Below the pieces are notes generated by a model. That model made no database searches and was not told the origin of the DNA. It saw only the letters and a program-made list of their open reading frames with translations. From a virus (lineage: Duplodnaviria > Caudoviricetes), in the IMG/VR virus record IMGVR_UViG_3300032212_000033, positions 1-44,150 of that record: 44,150 bases of DNA. The stretch is one strand, 5' to 3'. Below, one piece after another: positions 1,718 through 44,150 of this stretch; the stretch's first letter is position 1, and each line of letters starts with the position of its first letter. The translations under genes and the position numbers were made by a program.

Positions 1718-2287
1718 TTATTTTATAAGGCTTAAGAATTCATTCCTAGCCTTAATATCTTCTTTGAAGATACCTTGAAGCTTTGATGTTGTAGTGGTGC
1801 TGTTAACGTCTTTAATACCCCTATAACATACACATAGGTGACTAGCTTCGATCATTACCGCTACTCCTAAAGGCTCTAAAGCCTCCTGAATAGCATTAGC
1901 AATTTGGACAGTTAAGCGTTCTTGAACTTGCAATCTACGCATGTACTTCTCAACTATTCTGTTAATCTTTGACAGCCCTACAATCTTACCATTAGGTACG
2001 TAGGCTACATGACATACACCAAAGAAAGGTATCATGTGATGTTCACAGAATGACTGAAGTTTAATGTCCTTAACAAGTATCATTTCATCATACCCATCAG
2101 CACCATCTTCAAACACTTTCATAATGTCTTCATCTGATGGAGCATTGTAACCACTTAATAACTCGTCCCAAGCCTTTATAACTCTCTTAGGTGTCTCAAG
2201 CAGTCCTTCTCTGTTAGCGTTCTCACCAACATACCATAGTATATCACTTACAGCTTTCTCAGCTTCTAATCTCTCTACGTGGCTCAT
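1718..2287 (-). CDS. folE: GTP cyclohydrolase I
   Basis: REGLLETPKRV, SFCEHHMIPFFG, GLSKINR, LQVQERLT, HLCVCYRG motifs. Confidence 0.97.
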   Translation of the reverse strand: MSHVERLEAEKAVSDILWYVGENANREGLLETPKRVIKAWDELLSGYNAPSDEDIMKVFEDGADGYDEMILVKDIKLQSFCEHHMIPFFGVCHVAYVPNGKIVGLSKINRIVEKYMRRLQVQERLTVQIANAIQEALEPLGVAVMIEASHLCVCYRGIKDVNSTTTTSKLQGIFKEDIKARNEFLSLIK

Positions 2288-2535
2288 GTATTTTTCCTAT
2301 TCTGTCTTTTCATAGCTATAAACATAGCAAAGTTAGCCACATCGGCACATTCTCTAATAATTGAGGCATCTTCATTCTCATCAAGTGAGTCATTCAACTC
2401 TGACACCTCTTCTTTTAGCAACCTAAGAAGTTCATAAGAGCTTAAACGCTCAAAACCCCCTTTATGCTTATGTACTAGAAGCTTATGCTTCATATGTACT
2501 GTAAAGTCTTCAATCTCTTCATCAAATAAACTCAT
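2284..2535 (-). CDS. MazG-like (d)NTP pyrophosphohydrolase
   Basis: EEVSEL...ECADVANFAM acidic-helix signature (EExxE / ExAD). Confidence 0.7.
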   Translation of the reverse strand: MSLFDEEIEDFTVHMKHKLLVHKHKGGFERLSSYELLRLLKEEVSELNDSLDENEDASIIRECADVANFAMFIAMKRQNRKNT

Positions 2536-3296
2536 AGTAATGACTCCATATAGTTAATGTTGCTCACAGTAAGCTCATGGAATTCCTCAAAGGTAGTGAC
2601 CCTATCAAAATCCACAGCATCAGCAAACTTAGTTTCAGTCTTAGACACATCTAAACCATTTACACCATACCACACAGCTGCAGAAGTGTCCCAACTATTA
2701 ACCAAGTGTTTGTAGTAGGTTACACGTAAGATTTCATCTACACTGTTAAGCATTCCTAACATATGAAACTTCTTAGCGTTATTAGGAGTGTTGAACTTCT
2801 CAAGTATATGTGACCTAACCTTAATAGGTGGCATAAGCTCATAAGCATTAGGTGCACCTAAAATAGAAAGCCCTACAAAGTCTATGTCAGGGTGATGCAA
2901 GGCATTATGAATACTTAACTCATAGCCCTGAGCATCACCTTTAAGTGACTGAGGCACAAACATGGTTCTAAAACCTGCATCTTTGTAAGCTTTAATATCA
3001 CTCTCAATAGTCAACCAGCCTTTAGCCCAAGGTTCAAAAGGATAGTCAGGTAGAACCAAAATATCAGCTCCCACCTTGCGACCAATCTCAATCATTTTAT
3101 CTACGGGTAGGGGCACACCATTTTCAAAGGCTCCATTGTCAAGAAGCGTCTCTTTATTAGAAGCTTTAAACAGTTCAGCGTAAGCATCATCTTTATCCGC
3201 TATATGAGCCAGTACCATGTTCATACCACTACGTTTAATAGCATATGCTGCATCACTTGTAGGGGCAATATGTGCCAACTTAATATCTTCTACCAT
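2532..3296 (-). CDS. dpdA: DpdA-like TGT-fold DNA guanine transglycosylase
   Basis: LLDNGAFE, LVLPD, KFHMLG, SWDTS correspond to TGT/DpdA DSGAF, base-binding Asp, HxLG and nucleophilic Asp motifs; sits among que genes. Confidence 0.72.
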   Translation of the reverse strand: MVEDIKLAHIAPTSDAAYAIKRSGMNMVLAHIADKDDAYAELFKASNKETLLDNGAFENGVPLPVDKMIEIGRKVGADILVLPDYPFEPWAKGWLTIESDIKAYKDAGFRTMFVPQSLKGDAQGYELSIHNALHHPDIDFVGLSILGAPNAYELMPPIKVRSHILEKFNTPNNAKKFHMLGMLNSVDEILRVTYYKHLVNSWDTSAAVWYGVNGLDVSKTETKFADAVDFDRVTTFEEFHELTVSNINYMESLL

Positions 3297-3637
3297 TCTT
3301 CAACTCCTCTATAAACTGCACCGTTCTCATTATCTTCTAAGACCTCACAACTCTTAAGGTCAAACCTATTATATAACTCTCTAGCTATCATCTCACAACT
3401 CATCTTATCAAAGAAGTGAGTACGGTGATCAGCGTCATAATACTCTTCTTCAAGATACTCTAACATATCCTTCTTAAGCATTATGATTTCTCTATCACGA
3501 TCATCATGATTTACACGTTTCTCACATTTAAAGTAAAACACATGTCTGTGATGGTATCTGAGATAACTAACCTCTTCATGAGGGCAGTCAGCCCATCTAT
3601 GAATTCCCTCAAGCTGAAACTTCATTACTATGTTCAT
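3290..3637 (-). CDS. dpdL: QueD-paralogue T-fold protein, DpdL-like (putative CDG decarboxylase)
   Basis: EGIHRW, LRYHHRHVF (LxxxHRHxF in place of QueD CxxxHGH), SCEMIA, EDNENGA; start at 3637 gives TAATG coupling to queE. Confidence 0.65.
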   Translation of the reverse strand: MNIVMKFQLEGIHRWADCPHEEVSYLRYHHRHVFYFKCEKRVNHDDRDREIIMLKKDMLEYLEEEYYDADHRTHFFDKMSCEMIARELYNRFDLKSCEVLEDNENGAVYRGVEEW

Positions 3638-4251
3638 TATCTTACCTCCATAGCTTTGTGTGTTTGAAGTGATAGCTTCCACTCAGGGTTAGCCTTCACA
3701 AACTCTATACAGTATCTAACATTATCCATATCCCAGGTATGCTCGTTACCTATAGGCTGAACATATTTACGTTTAATATGCATCCAAGCAAACACATCCA
3801 CAGGATTGTCTACGCCAGCTAATAGCTTAAGCTCATGAAATCCAGTGGATGGTCTAGGTGCATCTTTGTCAAATGCTGCCTTAGGACTATAAGTAATATA
3901 GTCAGCCAATCTCACATTCTCAAGATTGAAGCCATTAGTCTCAACCTGAACGGTTACATTGAGGCTCAGGTTTAGGGCTGCAATGAGAGGATTAACATCA
4001 TGAAGACTGACTTCACCACCAGTAAGGACAACATGGTTAGTACCAGATGATGCAACGGCTTCCACGAGTTCCTTGATAGAGTATGTCTTGACCAAATCTT
4101 TATTAGTGTGAGCTTCATCATCACATACAAAGCCACCCCCAAAGTTACACTTAAGATTACACTTGTAAAATCTGATAAAAAACGCAGCTGTTCCAGCATA
4201 CTTACCTTCTCCCTGTATTGAGTAGAATGTCTCCACTATTTTATAGCTCAT
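3637..4251 (-). CDS. queE: 7-carboxy-7-deazaguanine synthase (radical SAM)
   Basis: ETFYSIQGEG, FIRFYKCNLKC...CD, VLTGGE, VETNG, SPK, LSLQTHK; probable ATG at 4251 overlapping queD stop. Confidence 0.95.
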   Translation of the reverse strand: MSYKIVETFYSIQGEGKYAGTAAFFIRFYKCNLKCNFGGGFVCDDEAHTNKDLVKTYSIKELVEAVASSGTNHVVLTGGEVSLHDVNPLIAALNLSLNVTVQVETNGFNLENVRLADYITYSPKAAFDKDAPRPSTGFHELKLLAGVDNPVDVFAWMHIKRKYVQPIGNEHTWDMDNVRYCIEFVKANPEWKLSLQTHKAMEVR

Positions 4252-4765
4252 AGATAGCCTCCGATTTTGGTGTTTCATTAAAGGTGACACGCTTAACAGT
4301 GACACCCATTTTAGCCATTTTAGTTTTAGCTATGTTAAAGAACCATTTAGATAAGTTCTCAGATGTAGGAACAAAATCCACGACCACAAACGACTCATAA
4401 AATTCATTTTCTAGTTCGTTGTCATCCAGTTCAAAGTATCCATAAGTTGCCCCACTATGAACCCCCTGCTCCACTTGACAAGGTGAGTTACCAGTAATAA
4501 CTGTAAATAGAGGGTCATTAATGTCAACAATAAACTTGTGGTCAATTACCTCATCAATAAACTTCTTGAACCAATTGAGGTGTTTAAAGTCTGTAACCAT
4601 TCCCTCTGTTAGCTCCTCAGCTTCCAATGAAATGGCTACCTTCATTCTGTGCCCATGCAGGTGACGGCACACACATTGATCATCAATACTGTACTCTTTG
4701 TTAAGTGTTTGATTATGAACTCTATGACCGTAATCACACTCAAACGTTTTTGTTATTCTATGCAT
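4241..4765 (-). CDS. queD: 6-carboxy-5,6,7,8-tetrahydropterin synthase
   Basis: GHRV, CRHLHGH, GMVTDF, DHKF, PTSENL, ETP motifs. Confidence 0.95.
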   Translation of the reverse strand: MHRITKTFECDYGHRVHNQTLNKEYSIDDQCVCRHLHGHRMKVAISLEAEELTEGMVTDFKHLNWFKKFIDEVIDHKFIVDINDPLFTVITGNSPCQVEQGVHSGATYGYFELDDNELENEFYESFVVVDFVPTSENLSKWFFNIAKTKMAKMGVTVKRVTFNETPKSEAIYEL

Positions 4766-5307
4766 TAGTTATCTCCTTGAAATTTAAACTTAATATATGC
4801 ATCACTCTCTACAACCATACCACAGTATGTAGGTTCAATAGGGCAGTTATAACGCTTACATAGTACAGCAGTATCATACTTACTGCCCTTTAATGTAGCT
4901 CCTGTGTCCGCTATATCATCTACCCATAGCACATACCTATCATCAGCTTCAGGTTCCATGTCAACATGAACCCTTGGAATATTTAAAGCATAGGCTACAC
5001 GTGCAGCCACATGCAGTCCACCTCTACCAGTTGTGTAGATAGCTAGATATTTCTCGTTAGGTATCTGTTTAATGAGATCAAACACTGCTTTGTCTTCATC
5101 AATAATGTCCTCACGATGAGCAAGCTCAACCCACTTAGCATACACTTGGATTTTCTGATAGTCCTCAACAAGTGAACCCTTCTCTCTCCAATTGTACTTC
5201 TCAATGCTCCATCTCATAGCACCAAGATAGGCTTCAGGTGACATGTTAGCTTTACACATAGCATGCACCTCAATACCCATATTAGCATAATGATCTTGGT
5301 TTCTCAT
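4765..5307 (-). CDS. DUF3310-like domain fused to type I phosphoribosyltransferase
   Basis: N-term HY..GIE...KYNWREKG..EDYQK (DUF3310 pattern); C-term GRGGL and VLWVDDIADTGATL PRPP-binding motif. Confidence 0.8.
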   Translation of the reverse strand: MRNQDHYANMGIEVHAMCKANMSPEAYLGAMRWSIEKYNWREKGSLVEDYQKIQVYAKWVELAHREDIIDEDKAVFDLIKQIPNEKYLAIYTTGRGGLHVAARVAYALNIPRVHVDMEPEADDRYVLWVDDIADTGATLKGSKYDTAVLCKRYNCPIEPTYCGMVVESDAYIKFKFQGDN

Positions 5308-6203
5308 TTTCTAGCCTTAAATATACTTAGTTCTACTCTAGTAACAAACTCCTCATGACTGACAGAAGTCACTTGGTGCATATCAGCTAGAATACCTGTT
5401 TGAATTGCTTCACCTAATCCCAAACCTTTCTTCTTGTAGAGTGCTAAAGTAGCATCCCACATTTCTTTGGGTTCTGTAAGACCTGCAAGAGCTTTATCAG
5501 CTCCAACCTTACCTACACCTGGAACACCCTTATAGCCATCAGAAGGGTCACCTGCAATCATTTGAAAGTATAAATACTTCACAGCCTCTAAAGGCTTAAC
5601 GATTTCAAACTCCTTCTTACCATAGTTGTAGTGACGACCAGCTGATTGATATAGTACATCCTTATCAAGAGCTGAAAGCAGATACTTCTCAGGGTCTTGT
5701 TTCTTTAAGTGAACTACTACATCATCAGCCTCACAACCATCACATACACGTACAGTTACGGGCACACCATCAATCTCAGTAATACTGAAGATATGAGCCC
5801 ATAACTCATTAAGCCCTGCTGGAGGTCTTGACTCTTTACGTGTAGCTTTATAGTCCTCAACATACTCCATACGGAAGTTAGGAGCTACATCCTCACAATG
5901 TAAACGTTCAGGCTTACCAGTCATGTATATCTCTATACTTGTAGGAGCTTGCTCACGGTCAGTAATAGCATCAACCATCCAAGCATCTGAAATCTCCTCA
6001 ATGTGATAGTTAACGGCATTGTATGCAGACTCTAAGTGTAACTGGTACTCACCACTAACAGCATACTCTGCCTCATCAGCATCATCAAAACCCTCTAAGC
6101 CTTCATCATCACCTTCAAGAGCATCAATGTCACAAAGCTCCTCACCTCTAAATGCTACTCTATAAAGGATAGAGTCACCATCAATTAAAACAACTTTACT
6201 CAT
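5304..6203 (-). CDS. 5'-3' exonuclease (T7 gp6/FEN-like)
   Basis: LIDGDSILYR, YKATR, EADD, DKD, GDPSDGYKGVPGVG; probable start 6203. Confidence 0.92.
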   Translation of the reverse strand: MSKVVLIDGDSILYRVAFRGEELCDIDALEGDDEGLEGFDDADEAEYAVSGEYQLHLESAYNAVNYHIEEISDAWMVDAITDREQAPTSIEIYMTGKPERLHCEDVAPNFRMEYVEDYKATRKESRPPAGLNELWAHIFSITEIDGVPVTVRVCDGCEADDVVVHLKKQDPEKYLLSALDKDVLYQSAGRHYNYGKKEFEIVKPLEAVKYLYFQMIAGDPSDGYKGVPGVGKVGADKALAGLTEPKEMWDATLALYKKKGLGLGEAIQTGILADMHQVTSVSHEEFVTRVELSIFKARK

Positions 6204-7923
6204 AAGTACACTCCCATAGACAACCATCCTTCTCAATAGTATTCATGTTCTGACCTACAAATACATCCACTGGCATAGGTAGGTCACTAATCTTAGTGTT
6301 CACTGTAATAGAGTACCAAGCTTCTCTCATGCACTCAGCTAGTACAGCTCCTACTTCTTTAGCCTCGTCAAGTGAGTCAGCTTCATAAGTATAGGAGTCA
6401 TGAATAAACATGAGCATCTTGCCGTAGTCCTCGCCCAGCCTCTTACGCATGTTCACTAAAGCTAGTTTTGCAACCTCTGCTCCAAGACCTTGGTTCATAA
6501 TATTGTTAGTATCTGTTGGAAGCTTACCAATATATTTACGTCCCATAGGTGTAGACATTACTGTCTTCTTCTGCCAATGACGAATGTTACGATCATGCCA
6601 AGCTTTAATGCCAGGGAAAGTATCAAGCCACTTTTTCTTGTTAGCCTTGAGTTCAGACTCAGGCAGTATCATACCAGTGTACTTTGTTAGTACATTACCT
6701 ACCTGAGCCCATCCAGCACCGTATAGACATGCAAAGTTATAAATCTTAGCAATCTGTCTTAACGAGTTACCACGTCCAGCATCACTAACCTCTTGGTCAG
6801 CACTAAATAGAGAGTCACGTACATAATCATGCATATCTTGTTTCTCTCTAAAAAGTTTCTCAAGAATGGGTTCACCAATCAATACACACAGACTTCTAAG
6901 CTCCAACTGAGCAAAGTCAGCATATACAAAGTATTTACCCTCTTTACACTGAATCATCTGCTTGAGTGATGTAGGTATCTGCTGTAAGTTCATATCGGAA
7001 CACTTAGAACGACCTGAACGAGTACCTATGTTTAGATACCCTTTCACATAGTCATCATCTTTACGTTCATTTAAGAACTTAGTAATGAATGAGTTCTGCT
7101 TTCTAAGTGACCTGACAGTTCTAACATTAGCGGCACGTTCATTACCACTAGCCGCAGCTAAAGCAAGAGCGTCATCATCTGACTGGTCAAGACCAATGTA
7201 AGGTCTCACTTGTTGATAGCTGTTCACATTGATAGGTAGGTTCATTTCATTAATCTGTGAGTTGTTGAGAGCCATACGCTCCTCTAACCACTCAACATCA
7301 ATAGGTAGTTTCTCACCCATCATAGCAAAAGCTTCAATAGTAGCTTTATCAAGCTTATACGTCCACCCAGCCGCATCAATGTCATAAGACTCAAACACTT
7401 TAGGTAGTGCCCAAACATCCATCGCAGCATAAGCATACTGCTGATCAGTTAGTCCACCTGACCAATCCGACTTCTGCATTTTCTTTTTATCGTATACGAT
7501 ACCTTTAGAGAAGTCAATCTGCTCACCATCCATATACACTGGATAGCTACCATCAAACATATCAGCATACATATCTTTACGCCATACACGCATAACTACA
7601 TCATCAAGTGAGTGTTTATCTTTATTGAAGTTTATGATAGTGTCTAGTACATATGTGTCATCCCATGACTCAGGACAAAAACCTAAACAATCCATATCAT
7701 ACTTGAAGTTGTGGCCTACTACATTAGAAGCCTCTTTGATACGCTTCTTAACAAGTGGTAGTGGAAACCTAGCTACATCATAAACATAGACGTTTTTCTC
7801 ATCAAGCTCAGGACAGTAGATTTGCACTACTCTCACGTCACCATGAAGTCCACGTGTTTCAGAATCACAGAATATTTGTTTGTCTTTGAAGTTTACATCT
7901 TCGCTGTTTAGAATTATGTTCAT
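6196..7923 (-). CDS. polA: Family A DNA polymerase with 3'-5' exonuclease
   Basis: Exo CDSET, HNFKYD, YAAMD; pol NLQQIP, ADFAQLELR, RQIAKIYNFACLYG, IHDS. Confidence 0.96.
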   Translation of the reverse strand: MNIILNSEDVNFKDKQIFCDSETRGLHGDVRVVQIYCPELDEKNVYVYDVARFPLPLVKKRIKEASNVVGHNFKYDMDCLGFCPESWDDTYVLDTIINFNKDKHSLDDVVMRVWRKDMYADMFDGSYPVYMDGEQIDFSKGIVYDKKKMQKSDWSGGLTDQQYAYAAMDVWALPKVFESYDIDAAGWTYKLDKATIEAFAMMGEKLPIDVEWLEERMALNNSQINEMNLPINVNSYQQVRPYIGLDQSDDDALALAAASGNERAANVRTVRSLRKQNSFITKFLNERKDDDYVKGYLNIGTRSGRSKCSDMNLQQIPTSLKQMIQCKEGKYFVYADFAQLELRSLCVLIGEPILEKLFREKQDMHDYVRDSLFSADQEVSDAGRGNSLRQIAKIYNFACLYGAGWAQVGNVLTKYTGMILPESELKANKKKWLDTFPGIKAWHDRNIRHWQKKTVMSTPMGRKYIGKLPTDTNNIMNQGLGAEVAKLALVNMRKRLGEDYGKMLMFIHDSYTYEADSLDEAKEVGAVLAECMREAWYSITVNTKISDLPMPVDVFVGQNMNTIEKDGCLWECTYE

Positions 7924-9107: not shown

Positions 9108-9147
9108 TATATAATTATATTCAATTATACCTTTATTTAAGTTTAAG
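9108..9147 (-). promoter_or_regulatory. Putative promoter upstream of ssb
   Basis: Minus strand CTTAAACTTAAATAAAGGTATAATTGAATATAAT; near-identical to 1591-1630. Confidence 0.7.
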
Positions 9148-12349: not shown

Positions 12350-12784
12350 CTATAAACCTTTCAATAATTCTATATTTGCTAGATATACTTTACTATTATG
12401 AGTTTCTTTCACTTTAGTTTCTAATTCTTCTAACGTACCCCAAAAACACCCTGCTTGTACCATCCAACTATCATCATGTTGTTTGACACAATAAACCAAT
12501 CTTTTTGACGTATCATAAGCTATGAATTGGTAAACATTATTAGCCCTTCTTAAATTAGCACATCTTAAATCAGCACCTCTTAAATTAGCACCTCTTAAAT
12601 TAGCACATCTTAAATCAGCATCTCTTAAATTAGCACCTTCTAAATTAGCACATCTTAAATTAGCACATCTTAAATTAGCACGTTCTAAGGATATTCTATT
12701 AAATATACAATATTTAACCATTTCCTTAACAGTATCATATTCACCTTCATGTATAATAGTTCCATCAATTCTTTTAAGTTGCAT
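12350..12784 (-). CDS. Pentapeptide-repeat protein
   Basis: About 9 A[ND]L[RE]x repeats and C-terminal [12 protein letters not shown] motif. Confidence 0.92.
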
Positions 12785-14125: not shown

Positions 14126-16516
14126 TCACACCTCCTCAGGATATTTAATGTCTTGAACTTCTCCAAGCATGTTACTAATTAGTGACTTGTAGCCTTCAAA
14201 AGCTTCATCACTCAACGCAAACACATACCCATCACTAGGCCATGTAGCCCAGTCAGGTGGCATGTATGATGGCAAGTGTTTCTTCCACTTAGGTACATAC
14301 TTAGCACCACAGTTGTTAAAATCTACGTGAAGCATCTTGCCTATGCTTGACTTTGAAAACGTAGACTCCGCATGACGTTCAGCCATTACAAAAGGTAGGA
14401 ACATTTCAAACCATTTCCACGGTAATGCCACCTTGCCAGTATCAGCGTTATAGGTATGCACTAAGAACTGATACAGTTGTAACAGCTCACCCTCTCCAGC
14501 TTCATCAACCTTCACTATACCATGTAGGTCTTGAGGCTGACTCAACGAGTGGATAATATTCTGAGTATTCGTAGCACCACTACTCACCCACAGCTTCCTA
14601 TACTCAGTTGGTGGTGCCTCTTTAAACAACGCAAGCTGTGTAGCCTTATCAAACCCTGCACTATATAGGTGATATAGGTAGTCAGTAAACTCCTGAGCCA
14701 CCTCACTATGATCATGAGTCTGAAGCAGTTTAGCGAGCTCAAGTTGCTCCACCTCTGTTAGTGGTTCAGTCATTCCATGGAAATGAGCAGGCTCAAGACA
14801 CAGCATACGTCTATCACTAGGTGACAGCTTAAGCCTAAAGTTAGTTGAACCAGTCAATGCCACCTTTATACGCTCTGTACTAACAGAAGCACCCTTCATA
14901 TTCAGCTTGCGGTATGCGTTAGTATTCTGTTGTTTGATAACAGCGTATGCAGAGTCCCATTCCTTTACAGATAGGTTGGGCATATCCTCTAGCGACAATA
15001 GCCTCACTTGACTCACAGCATCACCCCACCCACTTGTAAGCGTCTTAACATCTATACCACTCGCAGCCTGCTGTAGTATTAGTGAAGGTATTTCAATAGT
15101 AACAGCCGACTTACCTGACCCACCTTTCTCAGTTTCAAGTGCAGCCATCCACAGCACGGTAGAGGGAGACTCACTACCAAACACTACCTGAGCATAAAAA
15201 GCCAGCACTATATCAAGATACGTTGGCCCCACAGTAGAGCGTAGTGTCTTCATCAGTATGTTGTTAGCACTCACAGTATCAATAGGTGATGCTTGTTTGA
15301 TATACTCACTAGGACTATACAGATTGACCTGATGTCTGTCGTGTCTAGTATCAATGGTATACTGTGGCTCATATGGAGAGTTCATAGTATAGATGATAGG
15401 CAGGTTAGAGTCCCACCCTACAACCCTACCTTCTTCATTCACTATATCTCTCTCAGGATGTAATGCTTGTGCCGTGTTGATGTCAATGAGATACGAGTTA
15501 CCATGAGCTACAGGCTCACGTGAAAACTTATCTACCTCAATGAAAAACAACTTACCATTGTTAATGGTTCTGAAGATTGGACTCTCTGTCGCAGGCTGAC
15601 TATCTAAATGCTCTTGAAAGGTCTGATCATCATCACTAAGTGAAAAGTGAGTAAGACTGGCGTGCTGAGGCAAACTCGGCAGTATATTGACGTGCATCAG
15701 AGATTGACTCATATCAGACATAGGATTGATACCCCACTGCGTTAGTAGCTTGTAGAGTGCAGGCACAGTATGTTCGTTGTAATCAAGCTCTGCAGTTGCA
15801 GTTAGCTTTACAGCAATCTTATTGAACAAGTCATAACTCAGTGGAAAGTCCTTGAGGTCAATCTTCTTTGTACCTGATTGAATATACTCTGCTGGAATGA
15901 TTGACCTATAAAAGGCATTCCACTGCTTACGACTCGTCAGCTCATCTTCAAGGAACGCCCTGACCAGGTTGAAACGCTGGACGTTAGTGGTTGGGGTTAT
16001 AATCCCAGTCTTGTTAGTGGTAGGCACGTCCAGCGAGTCAATCAGTTTCAGGAGGTCTTCAGGAGCCTCAAGCATTGGATTGTCATGAAGCTGATAGTGC
16101 TCACTAAACGTATGCGCTTCAAATATAGTACCATATGAAAACACATCACAATCAGTACCTAATATATGCGTTATGCGATTAGGGATGTTTGATGTGTTGG
16201 CGTTGTAGTAGATATGATAACTCCCTGGCTTAGTTGTCTGTGAGTAAAGGCTCAGAGGCAGTGTAAGCTCAAGAGAGGGTATCTCAATGGTATTTGCTTC
16301 ATTGTCTATAATTGAATACTCACCATCTATGTCAAACACTATGATATCTTTGGTTAAGAAGTGACGTGCCATGTTGTCATTCGGATAGCTTGACCAGTTT
16401 AGGTTGTCTACCCTCTTGGCATCTTTGGCTTTCTTCTTGCCATGCTCCATAGTCCACTGTCCCGCTGGAGTTAGAGTGATGTTGTGTTTAGAGAATGTCT
16501 CTATAATGTTTTGCAT
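14126..16516 (-). CDS. Primase-helicase (AEP/prim-pol N-terminus plus SF3-like helicase)
   Basis: IVFDIDG (DxD) and SYHIYY AEP motifs; KGGSGKS Walker A, LSLED Walker B, TGSTN motif C; probable start 16516. Confidence 0.82.
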   Translation of the reverse strand: MQNIIETFSKHNITLTPAGQWTMEHGKKKAKDAKRVDNLNWSSYPNDNMARHFLTKDIIVFDIDGEYSIIDNEANTIEIPSLELTLPLSLYSQTTKPGSYHIYYNANTSNIPNRITHILGTDCDVFSYGTIFEAHTFSEHYQLHDNPMLEAPEDLLKLIDSLDVPTTNKTGIITPTTNVQRFNLVRAFLEDELTSRKQWNAFYRSIIPAEYIQSGTKKIDLKDFPLSYDLFNKIAVKLTATAELDYNEHTVPALYKLLTQWGINPMSDMSQSLMHVNILPSLPQHASLTHFSLSDDDQTFQEHLDSQPATESPIFRTINNGKLFFIEVDKFSREPVAHGNSYLIDINTAQALHPERDIVNEEGRVVGWDSNLPIIYTMNSPYEPQYTIDTRHDRHQVNLYSPSEYIKQASPIDTVSANNILMKTLRSTVGPTYLDIVLAFYAQVVFGSESPSTVLWMAALETEKGGSGKSAVTIEIPSLILQQAASGIDVKTLTSGWGDAVSQVRLLSLEDMPNLSVKEWDSAYAVIKQQNTNAYRKLNMKGASVSTERIKVALTGSTNFRLKLSPSDRRMLCLEPAHFHGMTEPLTEVEQLELAKLLQTHDHSEVAQEFTDYLYHLYSAGFDKATQLALFKEAPPTEYRKLWVSSGATNTQNIIHSLSQPQDLHGIVKVDEAGEGELLQLYQFLVHTYNADTGKVALPWKWFEMFLPFVMAERHAESTFSKSSIGKMLHVDFNNCGAKYVPKWKKHLPSYMPPDWATWPSDGYVFALSDEAFEGYKSLISNMLGEVQDIKYPEEV

Positions 16517-16517
16517 A

Positions 16518-16988
16518 CTACGCCACCACAGCGTTGTCAAGCATGGTCAGCAGGACGTCTGACAGAGGCTCATCAAGCGTTACGTACATAGGTATAATAT
16601 CTGTGGGATACTCTTCATGACTAACACGCTCACAAATATAAGCCATTAAAGTGCCTGCGTCAGTAGCATCCATGTTCCACGTGGTAATAGTTAGCTTGTC
16701 AGGAAAGAATGACAATGCTTCAGCCACTTGAGTGGCAGTCCCTATAATAGGTTTGAGGTCATTGTCCCTAGTTATATAATACACCGTTGTTCCTGATGAT
16801 ATTGACGCCCTGAGTAGTGCGGCTATTGGACTCAGCTTTGCTTGTGACATGCCTATGTCCTCTGCAACAGCTACTTGTCCATAGTCTCTTATGCGTTTTA
16901 GAATGTCCGCTCTGTGATCTATGATGGCTATATAGTATTGAGGATTGTGTGGAATGCTTAGCCTTTTTAGTAGGTCTGTGTATGCCAT
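16518..16988 (-). CDS. Hypothetical protein with HTH-like segment
   Basis: GQVAVAEDIGMSQAKLS; AAGGA SD. Confidence 0.65.
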   Translation of the reverse strand: MAYTDLLKRLSIPHNPQYYIAIIDHRADILKRIRDYGQVAVAEDIGMSQAKLSPIAALLRASISSGTTVYYITRDNDLKPIIGTATQVAEALSFFPDKLTITTWNMDATDAGTLMAYICERVSHEEYPTDIIPMYVTLDEPLSDVLLTMLDNAVVA

Positions 16989-17018
16989 TGTTAGTTCCTT
17001 TATTTAATTAATATTTAT

Positions 17019-17053
17019 TATTATATATTAATAATTCTTTATCCAAGCTTAAA
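17019..17053 (-). promoter_or_regulatory. Putative promoter
   Basis: Minus strand TTTAAG-CTTGG-ATAAAG-N11-TATAAT, upstream of 16988. Confidence 0.6.
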
Positions 17054-39552: not shown

Positions 39553-42141
39553 ATGGAGGAGTTAGATTTTGAAGGTGCTGAGGCATTTGTTGAAGATTTA
39601 GATTTTGAAGGTGCTGAGGAGTTCACGGGTAATGTTATAGCCTTTGAACAACCTGAACCTACCCTTACAGCTACTGATAGTTCTGAGACTCCTATGGATA
39701 TTCCTGAAGACACTCAGGCAACAATGTCCTCAAAGGAGTTAGAGGCTTCAGGTCACGCAGGTCAATTAGGTGAACAGCTTCAACTAGGTGTAGCCTCTAC
39801 GTTTGGTGGTGCCTATCAAGGAGCTTTAGACCTAGCTGATATGGTAGGTATTGATGTTAGCCAGGAGAGTGAACTAAACCTTAAAACACTTGAAATGATT
39901 AACACTCAAATGAAAGCTTATGGTGATGATAGCATGTTCTCTCCTAGTAATGTAGGTGAGATGCTTCCATCCCTTGCAACGTTACCAGTGGCTTATGCCT
40001 CTAAACTTGCAGGCTTTGTGGTAGAGGGTTCAATAGCTTACGCTGATTCAAGAGGGTCAGAAGCACCTATATCAGAGTCACTAACTAACATGGTTATTGC
40101 TGGTGGTTTAACTGCGGGTAGTAAATATGTGTTTGATTACTTTGCTCAGAAAGGGCCAAGAGCACTTCAAATGGTTAAAGATGAGTTAGGTGTAGATGAT
40201 AAAGCTTTAACGGGTATCTATACTAGGTTTGGTAAGGTAGTAGGTAAAGACGTAGCTAGCATGACTGATGGTGATAAAGCTGTAGCACTCCTATCACAGG
40301 GAAAGGATAAAGGTGCGGCAATTCTCCATGAGATAGTAGCTAGTGATTTCAAGGCTCAAAAAGCTATGGATGCTTTACATAAGTCTAAGGTCAATGCGCA
40401 AGGTAGGTTAATAGGTGAGAAGGCTAATGTAGCTAAAGCAATCAAACCTATACTAGAGCAGAAGAAGTTCGCTAGTCAGTCATATGCAGAGTTTAAAAAC
40501 TTTCTAACAAAAGCTAAACCTTCTGTAGTTGTTCAGCCTGATCAAGTAACTAAGATAGTTGAAGCTTTAGCTGACATACCTGAACTCAGTAGACAGCCTA
40601 TTGCTAATAGAGTCATGAAGACCTTAAGTAAGAAGCTTGAAAGTGGTGAAGCTATCTCAATGGAGGATTTGTTTGATGCTAGAGAAGCTATGAATGCTGT
40701 AACACTGAAAACCAAAAATGTGGATAAGAAAACCTTTGAAACAATGAAGGGTCAGAAGTTTATAGATAGTATGATTGAAGCTAACATGCCTGAGTCAGGT
40801 GCTAAGCTATGGAGTCAGCTTAAAGGTGAACTAAAACTAAGCTATGCTTTAGGTGGTAAGAACACTAAGGCTGAGCTTAACAACGTCTTTGGCTCCCTTC
40901 TTAGTGATGCAGGTAAAGGTAAAATGACCTACAAAGCTATCTTAGATAACATCTATAAGACGTCAGGTAATACTAATAAGTTAATGGGTAGACACTCATT
41001 CAATCAAATTAGGGATGCTATTGGGTCAGTTAAGATGGAGCAGTTTGAGCGTGGCCTTGTCAAAGAGATTATGGAGGGCACTGGTGATGATTTAGGTAAG
41101 ACAATTGATAGAGTTGATAACCTAGGTTTTGTAACTCCTGAAGGTAAAGCCTTGAAGAAAGAGCTGAAGGCTTTAGATAGAGTGTTCAGTTCTGATGACT
41201 ATTATAAGCTAGCTGCTAATGTATTGTCAGGTAGAGCTGACATTGATGGTACATCCATTACAGCTAACCTTCTTAGTAAGCTGAAGTATACAGCTTCAGG
41301 AGCTTCATGGAATTGGTTGAAGAAGCTAGTACCTACTGAGAAGAATAAGTTCATCAAAAACATGGACCACCTAACAAAGATGATAGGTAAGACTAACCTA
41401 AGTGTAGCGGATTTAAGAGGTGTAAACCCTAGCACCTTTAGGGAGTACCAAGGAGTTGTTAGAGAGAGTATTCAGAACACTATTGATGAAGACTTAGTAA
41501 GGTTCAAAGAAGATTTCAACCTAGACAATGCTGAAGTGATTGACGCTGATGAAGTAGCTAAGCAGGCTGGTGATGTGTTTGATACCAGTGTAATACCTGA
41601 AACTAAACAACTGCCTGGAGGAGCTAAACAGCTTCCAGCACAGGCTAGTGGTGATACGGCTATTCCTATGGCTGCACCTAAGGCTTCAGGTATTAAGGGT
41701 GAGAAAGTTGCTCTTGAAGCCTTCATTAAAGACCATAGGTCAGTAGATAGCGGTAAGATAGATAAGATAGTTAAATCAGCTACTCCTGATGTTCAAGCTA
41801 CTCCTGAAGCACCTTTATACAGAGGTATGCGTATGAGTGATATGGAATTTCAACGTATGATTGATAGTGGAGAGTACATAAGTAGAAAACCTGACTCATT
41901 CTCTACAGACCTAATGTCAGCTAAAGGTTTCACCCTTGAGCAGTTCACTGGAGCTAGTAAAGGTAAGAATGAGGTCATCTTGGTTGATTCTAATGGTAAA
42001 GGTGTTAACTTAGGTGAAGGAAATCAGTTTGGTGTTAAGAGTATTGAAGATGAAGTATTAGTACCTAAAGGCACAAAATATAAGATTAAATCTACCAAGA
42101 AAGAAGATGGTAGAACTATTGTAGAGGTGGAACAGCTTTAG
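39553..42141 (+). CDS. Large ejection-type protein with C-terminal ADP-ribosyltransferase domain
   Basis: Last structural gene; C-terminal LYRG, SFST, IEDEVLVPKGTKYKI (R-S-ExE). Confidence 0.78.
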   Translation: MEELDFEGAEAFVEDLDFEGAEEFTGNVIAFEQPEPTLTATDSSETPMDIPEDTQATMSSKELEASGHAGQLGEQLQLGVASTFGGAYQGALDLADMVGIDVSQESELNLKTLEMINTQMKAYGDDSMFSPSNVGEMLPSLATLPVAYASKLAGFVVEGSIAYADSRGSEAPISESLTNMVIAGGLTAGSKYVFDYFAQKGPRALQMVKDELGVDDKALTGIYTRFGKVVGKDVASMTDGDKAVALLSQGKDKGAAILHEIVASDFKAQKAMDALHKSKVNAQGRLIGEKANVAKAIKPILEQKKFASQSYAEFKNFLTKAKPSVVVQPDQVTKIVEALADIPELSRQPIANRVMKTLSKKLESGEAISMEDLFDAREAMNAVTLKTKNVDKKTFETMKGQKFIDSMIEANMPESGAKLWSQLKGELKLSYALGGKNTKAELNNVFGSLLSDAGKGKMTYKAILDNIYKTSGNTNKLMGRHSFNQIRDAIGSVKMEQFERGLVKEIMEGTGDDLGKTIDRVDNLGFVTPEGKALKKELKALDRVFSSDDYYKLAANVLSGRADIDGTSITANLLSKLKYTASGASWNWLKKLVPTEKNKFIKNMDHLTKMIGKTNLSVADLRGVNPSTFREYQGVVRESIQNTIDEDLVRFKEDFNLDNAEVIDADEVAKQAGDVFDTSVIPETKQLPGGAKQLPAQASGDTAIPMAAPKASGIKGEKVALEAFIKDHRSVDSGKIDKIVKSATPDVQATPEAPLYRGMRMSDMEFQRMIDSGEYISRKPDSFSTDLMSAKGFTLEQFTGASKGKNEVILVDSNGKGVNLGEGNQFGVKSIEDEVLVPKGTKYKIKSTKKEDGRTIVEVEQL

Positions 42142-43753: not shown

Positions 43754-44123
43754 CTAAAAACTCCTTTATCATTCTAGCTTCCTCCTCAGGTGTGCTTTGA
43801 GGGTACTTGTCGGTATCTTCTTTCTTTCGACCTTTGATATCAAACTGAGCAAACTCCTTAGCAACGCAGAACTTACATCCTCTTGATACACCTCTCAATA
43901 ATTGAGACGACCTATGAATAGCTAAGGTTCCACACTTGCATATAACCTCTACTTCATAGGTGTTTAGGTAGTGGAGCACTGTCCAATTACCGAACGCTTG
44001 ACCAACCTTTATGTCTTGACCTCAAATAACAACCTTTATAGTTAATGCCCCTAGAGCTATCATACCTACGAACATTCCTACTACAATAGCAAGGATTAGT
44101 ACCCCTGCCAACATTAACTTCAC
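43737..44123 (-). CDS. TM helix plus Cys4 zinc-ribbon protein spanning the terminal overlap (128 aa using the left-copy allele)
   Basis: GQAFGNWTVL...CKCG...GCKFC; frame is open upstream in the left copy (TCA) but stopped in the right copy (TGA at 44022-44024). Confidence 0.55.
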
Positions 44124-44150
44124 ATTACTGTATAGCTCTTTCATAACTTG
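43954..44150. repeat. Terminal direct repeat, right copy
   Basis: Matches 1-197 with one mismatch. Confidence 0.97.

Follow-up and report, generated by a model that had tools for sequence, protein, structure and literature searches.

A DUF3310-phosphoribosyltransferase fusion in a phage 7-deazaguanine gene run and a possible pre-replicative route to the modified base

What is a domain of a nucleotide kinase family doing on a phosphoribosyltransferase (PRT), in the middle of a phage gene run for 7-deazaguanine? The protein in question is encoded in the window, by which we mean the whole 44,150-nucleotide stretch analyzed here (IMG/VR record IMGVR_UViG_3300032212_000033, Caudoviricetes); it carries a 197-base direct terminal repeat (1-197 and 43954-44150, 99% identical) and is apparently the complete genome of an uncultured phage. 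The question concerns timing as well as function. According to the published analysis of related systems (PMC10516641), 7-deazaguanine insertion is always post-replicative, and phages phiST, CP220, and immuto_2-6A are 100% substituted; the plasmid assay described there, in E. coli, yielded nothing with either DpdA3 or DpdL, and for DpdA3 the published model could not be reconstituted.

A two-domain protein in an intact reading frame

Positions 4765-5307 (minus strand) hold an intact 180-aa open reading frame with two domains: DUF3310 (residues 5-58) and a 6-oxopurine PRT fold (residues 65-180). The helical N-terminal domain (residues 1-64; 5116..5307, minus strand) matches PF11753 with 26.3 bits (cutoff 24; E 7.5e-6) and PHROG 236 'nucleotide kinase' over residues 3-71 (E 3.4e-9), and retains the HY, KY-x-WR-x-K, and D-xx-K motifs conserved in alignment A1; from the gene replacements described below, we predict that it is a dNMP kinase. 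The tie to T7 gp1.7 appears to come through family membership and to be weak at the pairwise level: the A1 profile aligns weakly with gp1.7 over 43 columns (hhalign probability 66%, E 5.5e-5), a direct BLASTP gave no match, and tblastn reached phiA1122 'protein 1.7' at E 6e-3. A whole-protein structure search returned no informative fold match for the N-terminal domain, and an Atlas look-up returned DUF3310 clusters only, with scores below 0.9.

The C-terminal domain (residues 65-180; 4765..5115, minus strand) is, as modeled, a minimal type I PRT core fold of 6-oxopurine type. It matches PHROG 8995 over residues 72-174, and in an AlphaFold2 model of the fusion (pLDDT 87) its best structural match is the HGXPRT 4z1o (Z 14.4, rmsd 2.1, 111 aligned), followed by the XGPRT 6kp5 (Z 13.4, rmsd 2.6, 116 aligned) and 1vdm (Z 12.8). 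By profile the domain is divergent, scoring 21.7 bits against the Pfam Pribosyltran (PF00156) cutoff of 26.3, which some fused homologues pass, and 14-18 against NCBIfam cutoffs of 138-345. The GRGG loop and the VDDIADTGAT PRPP loop are both intact, the latter with its acidic pair (VLWVDDIADTGAT, residues 126-138), and 1vdm has about 19 more residues in the loop II region, between two aligned blocks. Asp137 of human HGPRT lies near N7 of the base (PMC2228302), and the equivalent Asp is kept in 29 of the 30 readable fused proteins (of 32); it is replaced by Cys or His in 1 of these 30 and in 9 of the 66 readable stand-alone minimal PRTs (of 70). As a separate observation, 5 of the 30 fused proteins (P0085, P0088, P0092, P0103, and P0107) have Ser or Gly in place of the second acidic residue in the PRPP loop, which could reflect altered sugar recognition or decay.

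The fusion is real, as originally predicted, down to the match of its N-terminus with DUF3310. A word-based search (42 candidates) found 11 further fused homologues of 49-83% identity, and in a profile search of 50% clusters the representative was fused in 19 of the best 150 distant clusters; pN is below pS in both halves (compared with L070 and L189), at levels like those of queD and DpdA3. The many homologues and purifying selection rule out an assembly artefact or chance read-through. On a tree of the PRT domain, the fused and unfused states switch 4 times, at least 3 of them forced; a tree of DUF3310 is too short to resolve this history. No cultured phage record among those searched covers the fusion to 80%, and neither a single-sequence scan of viral contigs nor a scan with a fusion-specific DNA pattern found anything. 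The literature searched, mostly outside subscription papers, holds no description of a DUF3310-PRT fusion, in agreement with the original prediction, and the architecture, though part of a known system, is apparently undescribed.

The surrounding gene run and its counterparts

The fusion lies in a minus-strand gene run of polA, exonuclease, fusion, queD, queE, dpdL, dpdA3, mazG-like, and folE. Upstream are a family A DNA polymerase (PolA, 6196..7923, Pfam), to which we assign a putative role in the pathway, and, directly adjoining, a 5'-3' exonuclease (5304..6236, Pfam). The stop codon of the fusion overlaps the start codon of QueD (4241..4765; Pfam PTPS, E 1e-26), and there follow the radical SAM enzyme QueE (3637..4305; PHROG and NCBIfam profile matches); a DpdL-type QueD paralogue (3290..3682), the proposed CDG decarboxylase, which is 35% identical to phiST CGPG_00067 and whose LRYHHRHVF fits the LxxxHRHxF signature given for DpdL (PMC10516641); a DpdA3-type transglycosylase (2532..3296; family profile, alignment, and fold); a MazG/PRA-PH-like pyrophosphohydrolase (2284..2535; Pfam PRA-PH above cutoff, MazG below), predicted to convert dGTP to dGMP; and FolE, GTP cyclohydrolase I (1718..2287; Pfam E 2e-72). 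FolE, QueD, and QueE are thus present and QueC absent; searches of the window with one query each found no QueC, QueF, reductase, ThyX, dUTPase-like, or dNMP kinase gene, and the FolE control was found.

The DpdA3-type protein consists of a bare TIM barrel of 254 aa, in which D53, D84, and D203 are invariant; TGT and bacterial DpdA chains have 373-577 aa. The profile of its family detects DpdA3 in phiST (E 6e-14), immuto_2-6A (E 2e-23), and CP220 (E 9e-14), to which the window protein is only 16-21% identical, indicating a divergent branch. The fold matches aTGT (Z 16.4, rmsd 3.2, 228 aligned) and bacterial DpdA (Z 15.3, rmsd 3.5, 226 aligned); the profile matched no solved structure by sequence, and a single-sequence scan of viral contigs with DpdA3 found nothing. 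Full replacement of G by 7-deazaguanine has been measured in phiST (PMC10516641), and as the window has the phiST gene set, we predict full replacement here as well. A near-identical operon on a contig of a Sulfurovum MAG suggests a Campylobacterota host.

Other features of the genome were observed in passing. A 40-base AT-rich intergenic repeat, possibly a phage promoter or operator, occurs upstream of three minus-strand gene runs (1591-1630, 9108-9147, and 17014-17053), the 9108 copy preceding ssb, polA, and the deazaguanine genes. The structural region ends with a protein of 862 aa (39553-42141, plus strand) that has a weak C-terminal ADP-ribosyltransferase PHROG match (residues 832-860, E 2e-6); a pentapeptide-repeat protein (12350-12784, minus strand) contains a 15-base tandem array; and an 804-aa open reading frame (14126-16540, minus strand) with a P-loop-like GGSGKS motif, matching nothing in Pfam, PHROG, or NCBIfam, is by position probably a divergent primase-helicase.

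The fusion is tied to the 7-deazaguanine pathway. At all five fusion loci with DNA (the window, L070, L151, L152, and L189; L069, whose length and match are those of the window itself, was left out of all counts), it immediately precedes queD, and a DpdA3-type gene follows further downstream, as expected for the base-modification operon originally proposed, and we therefore reject the possibility that the fusion is unrelated to deazaguanine genes or common in phages lacking them. A scan with alignment A1 matched stand-alone DUF3310 only; these matches served as a control set, and que, DpdA3, or PRT genes occur at none of 64 stand-alone DUF3310 loci. In two of the fusion loci (L151 and L152), queC is present instead of dpdL, and related loci whose minimal PRT is unfused have queC and queF; the PRT thus accompanies several end products.

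Kinases and PRTs in the company of DpdA3

To place the two halves of the fusion, we turn to the genes beside DpdA3 in other phages. Our sample was the best 80 of 554 confirmed IMG/VR matches to the DpdA3 family, loci that come mostly from related T4-like phages and are not independent samples. Among these best 80 of 554, DUF3310 is found at 64 loci and a T4-type dNMP kinase (PF21448) at 14, with both at none and neither at 2; the kinase-slot gene usually adjoins DpdA3 or lies one gene off, and 59 of the 78 such genes start no more than 170 bases from the DpdA3 stop. The dNMP-kinase label changes 5 times on a quick DpdA3 tree, at least 3 changes being forced by supported branches. T4 gp1 is deoxy-specific, and a deoxy substrate is suggested by the fact that DUF3310 and a deoxynucleotide kinase exclude each other next to DpdA3. 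A gene of the dUTPase/dCTP-deaminase fold accompanies 76 of the same best 80 of 554 and could encode an ordinary dUTPase; at other DpdA3 loci, MazG or DUF5664 takes its place. Two side observations from these loci (L071-L150) may possibly indicate further modification: most of the T4-like ones have a protein of about 300 aa (PHROG 1574) following the DpdA3 cluster, and nine have a 2OG-Fe(II) oxygenase within the que genes.

All nine cultured DpdA3-type loci examined, those of the three fully substituted phages among them, likewise have a kinase-like gene or domain that is fused, adjacent, or two genes off: a dNMP kinase in D479, Ahp1, and Bakedbeans; AAA_18 in phiST and MA9V-3; and a thymidylate-kinase-like protein in CP220, immuto_2-6A, and BSP7. 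In cultured Rhizobium phage RHph_I1_18 (L067:7001-8269), the DpdA3-type barrel itself carries a C-terminal DUF3310-like domain. The phiST gene between dpdL and dpdA3, CGPG_00066 (L181:6314-6793), encodes an AAA_18 P-loop protein that is nucleotide-kinase-like, and was set aside by the published analysis (PMC10516641). The DpdA3-type genes beside kinases in Bacillus phage BSP7 (L186), Vibrio D479 (L065), Aeromonas Ahp1 (L066), and Vibrio Bakedbeans (L068) are unannotated, and these phages are candidates for full G replacement. We were unable to find a kinase within the fetched stretch of five related DpdA3 and PRT loci (L091, L153, L155, L167, and L177), and a further one (L154) has a weak kinase match only. 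The DpdL-bearing phages ACP17, PA5oct, and Roos, which we left out of the nine cultured loci, show no DpdA3-profile match and no kinase match within 5 kb, PA5oct having a PRT; and a DpdA1 control confined to the 9g cluster and two CAjan neighbours contains no named kinase or PRT, two 9g genes having a vague ATPase likeness.

The PRT half is less constant. It is present in 23 of the 36 loci reaching QueE and FolE and, in the stretches fetched, in 1 of the 9 cultured DpdA3-type loci; it is also found fused to FolE (P0230) and MazG (P0229), and occurs alike with dpdL, queC, or queC and queF gene sets. In the same slot before queD, L091:5589-6398 encodes a dATP/dGTP diphosphohydrolase (PF18909, DUF5664) fused to a PRT. 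An optional PRT that fuses to nearby pathway genes and keeps the N7-side Asp fits guanine salvage better than the loading of any one deazabase. Guanine would be the by-product common to every DpdA3 reaction, and its salvage is likely to be the predicted activity of the PRT.

Timing of guanine replacement and related systems

Taken in this light, the two halves of the fusion would do separate jobs, one activating a modified nucleotide and the other recycling displaced guanine; the unusual base would then be made ahead of DNA replication rather than after it, as published. Tentatively, and with slightly less than even confidence, we propose that base exchange by DpdA3 takes place on dGMP, which the MazG-like enzyme supplies, that DUF3310 phosphorylates the product, that PolA incorporates it, and that the PRT returns guanine to GMP. 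Specifically, i) FolE, QueD, and QueE would convert GTP to 7-carboxy-7-deazaguanine, as established for these families; ii) DpdL would remove the carboxyl group, as proposed in print; iii) the MazG-like enzyme would convert dGTP to dGMP, at once removing the competing triphosphate and supplying substrate; iv) DpdA3, unlike in the published model, would exchange guanine for 7-deazaguanine on free dGMP; v) the 7-deaza-dGMP would be phosphorylated by DUF3310 and then incorporated by the phage PolA, which would need to accept 7-deaza-dGTP; and vi) the PRT would salvage the released guanine with PRPP, refilling the GTP pool for FolE. The fusion would couple neighbouring genes and form no substrate channel. 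What we observe is gene content, folds, motifs, and co-occurrence; all catalytic assignments after QueE are inferred. According to a citation in PMC6884629, a modified-dGTP route was put forward earlier for phages of Campylobacter; a term search of the main text of PMC10516641 found no mention of kinase, ribosyltransferase, DUF3310, or dGTP. Phages with full replacement might on this proposal make 7-deaza-dGTP before replication, and the fusion, by phosphorylating the product and recycling guanine, might close a compact, self-contained dNTP-synthesis loop within one gene run of a 44-kb genome; we hold this, too, to be a little short of probable.

Guanine salvage by the PRT is common to the pre-replicative and post-replicative readings. 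In the latter, which follows the model of Cui et al. 2023 (PMC10516641), DpdA3 acts on DNA and the fusion merely supports the pools, DUF3310 being a general dGMP/dTMP kinase and the PRT recycling excised guanine; we regard this as rather unlikely. DpdA3 does have the TGT/DpdA fold, but as a bare 254-aa barrel shorter than TGT and bacterial DpdA chains, and it gave no product on plasmid DNA in the assay cited above. The T4-like DUF3310 family, which occurs in 462 phage records and frequently beside cobS, is common without deazaguanine genes, and so is perhaps no more than a general dNMP kinase attracted to a cluster for nucleotide metabolism; several unrelated kinase families nonetheless adjoin DpdA3, and a kinase lies next to it even in CP220, where DpdA3 sits between tail genes, away from the que genes. 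The five related loci in whose fetched stretches no kinase was seen fit this reading, whereas the pyrophosphohydrolase-type genes that accompany DpdA3 speak against it.

The original prediction placed the fusion in a route that takes the free base to the monophosphate and on to the diphosphate. Spelled out, the PRT would load 7-deazaguanine or CDG onto PRPP, the fused DUF3310 would phosphorylate the ribonucleotide, and a host reductase would give the deoxy form. Its operon link stands, but the channelling, while possible, is less likely, since the PRT product is a ribonucleotide, gp1.7 is reported to act on the deoxynucleotides dTMP and dGMP (PMC11897194), and the PRT is optional; we judge the route unlikely. 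TubE, itself a PRT, has been shown to act on CDG with PRPP, but it did not accept 7-deazaguanine (PMC6112128). The repeated alternation of fused and unfused states on the PRT tree speaks for this route, yet the PRT fuses equally to FolE, MazG, and DUF5664, and DUF3310 itself swaps with a deoxynucleotide kinase. Cys or His in place of the N7-side Asp might suit a base without N7, and is seen mainly in stand-alone PRTs; L091, L153, L155, and L167 keep the PRT where no kinase was seen, but 13 of the 36 loci and 8 of the 9 cultured loci (stretches fetched) are without it. The one query used found no ribonucleotide reductase in the window genome, and loading by the PRT would leave DpdA3, which is always present, without a role.

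Finally, it is improbable that one half belies its family name, the PRT as a non-catalytic nucleotide sensor or DUF3310 as a dNTP hydrolase or a host-takeover domain like lactococcal SaV, which also falls within DUF3310 (PMC8306868): the short loop II region, the Ser or Gly in five PRPP loops, the weak gp1.7 match, and the DUF5664 and MazG hydrolase domains in the same N-terminal position on PRTs would agree with this, but the GRGG and PRPP loops of the fusion are intact and under purifying selection, a MazG-like gene is already present in the window genome, and DUF3310 and dNMP kinases are mutually exclusive although each is found together with the dUTPase-fold gene.

We wish to stress that the kinase and hydrolase company of DpdA3 provides a concrete alternative to the published model and makes the timing of G replacement testable. 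If true, the pre-replicative model would add a transglycosylase acting on free nucleotide, give DUF3310 a function in many environmental phages, and provide an enzymatic route to 7-deaza-dGTP; if the fusion provides pool support only, it is by itself a modest curiosity.

The closest parallel in logic to the pre-replicative model is the Z-genome pathway (PurZ, MazZ, DatZ, and DpoZ), in which dGTP is hydrolysed to dGMP, the base is remodelled on the monophosphate, and the triphosphate is used by the phage polymerase; the base and the enzymes are different, the window lacks PurZ, and its PolA scores far below the DpoZ cutoffs. In gene content, the window resembles the phiST dDG system (PMC10516641), both having FolE, QueD, QueE, a MazG-like enzyme, DpdL, and DpdA3 and no QueC; they differ in that phiST has the AAA_18 P-loop kinase-like CGPG_00066 beside DpdA3 instead of DUF3310, and that the 12 kb fetched from phiST contain no PRT. 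The PRTs TubE and ToyH of Streptomyces are likewise encoded with folE, queD, and queE (PMC6112128), and belong to an antibiotic pathway in which the TubE substrate is CDG, not 7-deazaguanine. With the 6-oxopurine PRTs (Sulfolobus HGXPRT 4z1o, XGPRT 6kp5, and P. horikoshii 1vdm), the fusion PRT shares the fold, PRPP loop, acidic pair, and N7-side Asp, but has 115 residues, a shortened loop II region, and scores under all Pfam and NCBIfam cutoffs. The N-terminal domain passes the Pfam cutoff of the family of T7 gp1.7 and has a weak alignment with that protein in its C-terminal part, but it comprises a core of only about 60 residues joined to a PRT, its kinase activity is predicted, and its family also includes SaV.
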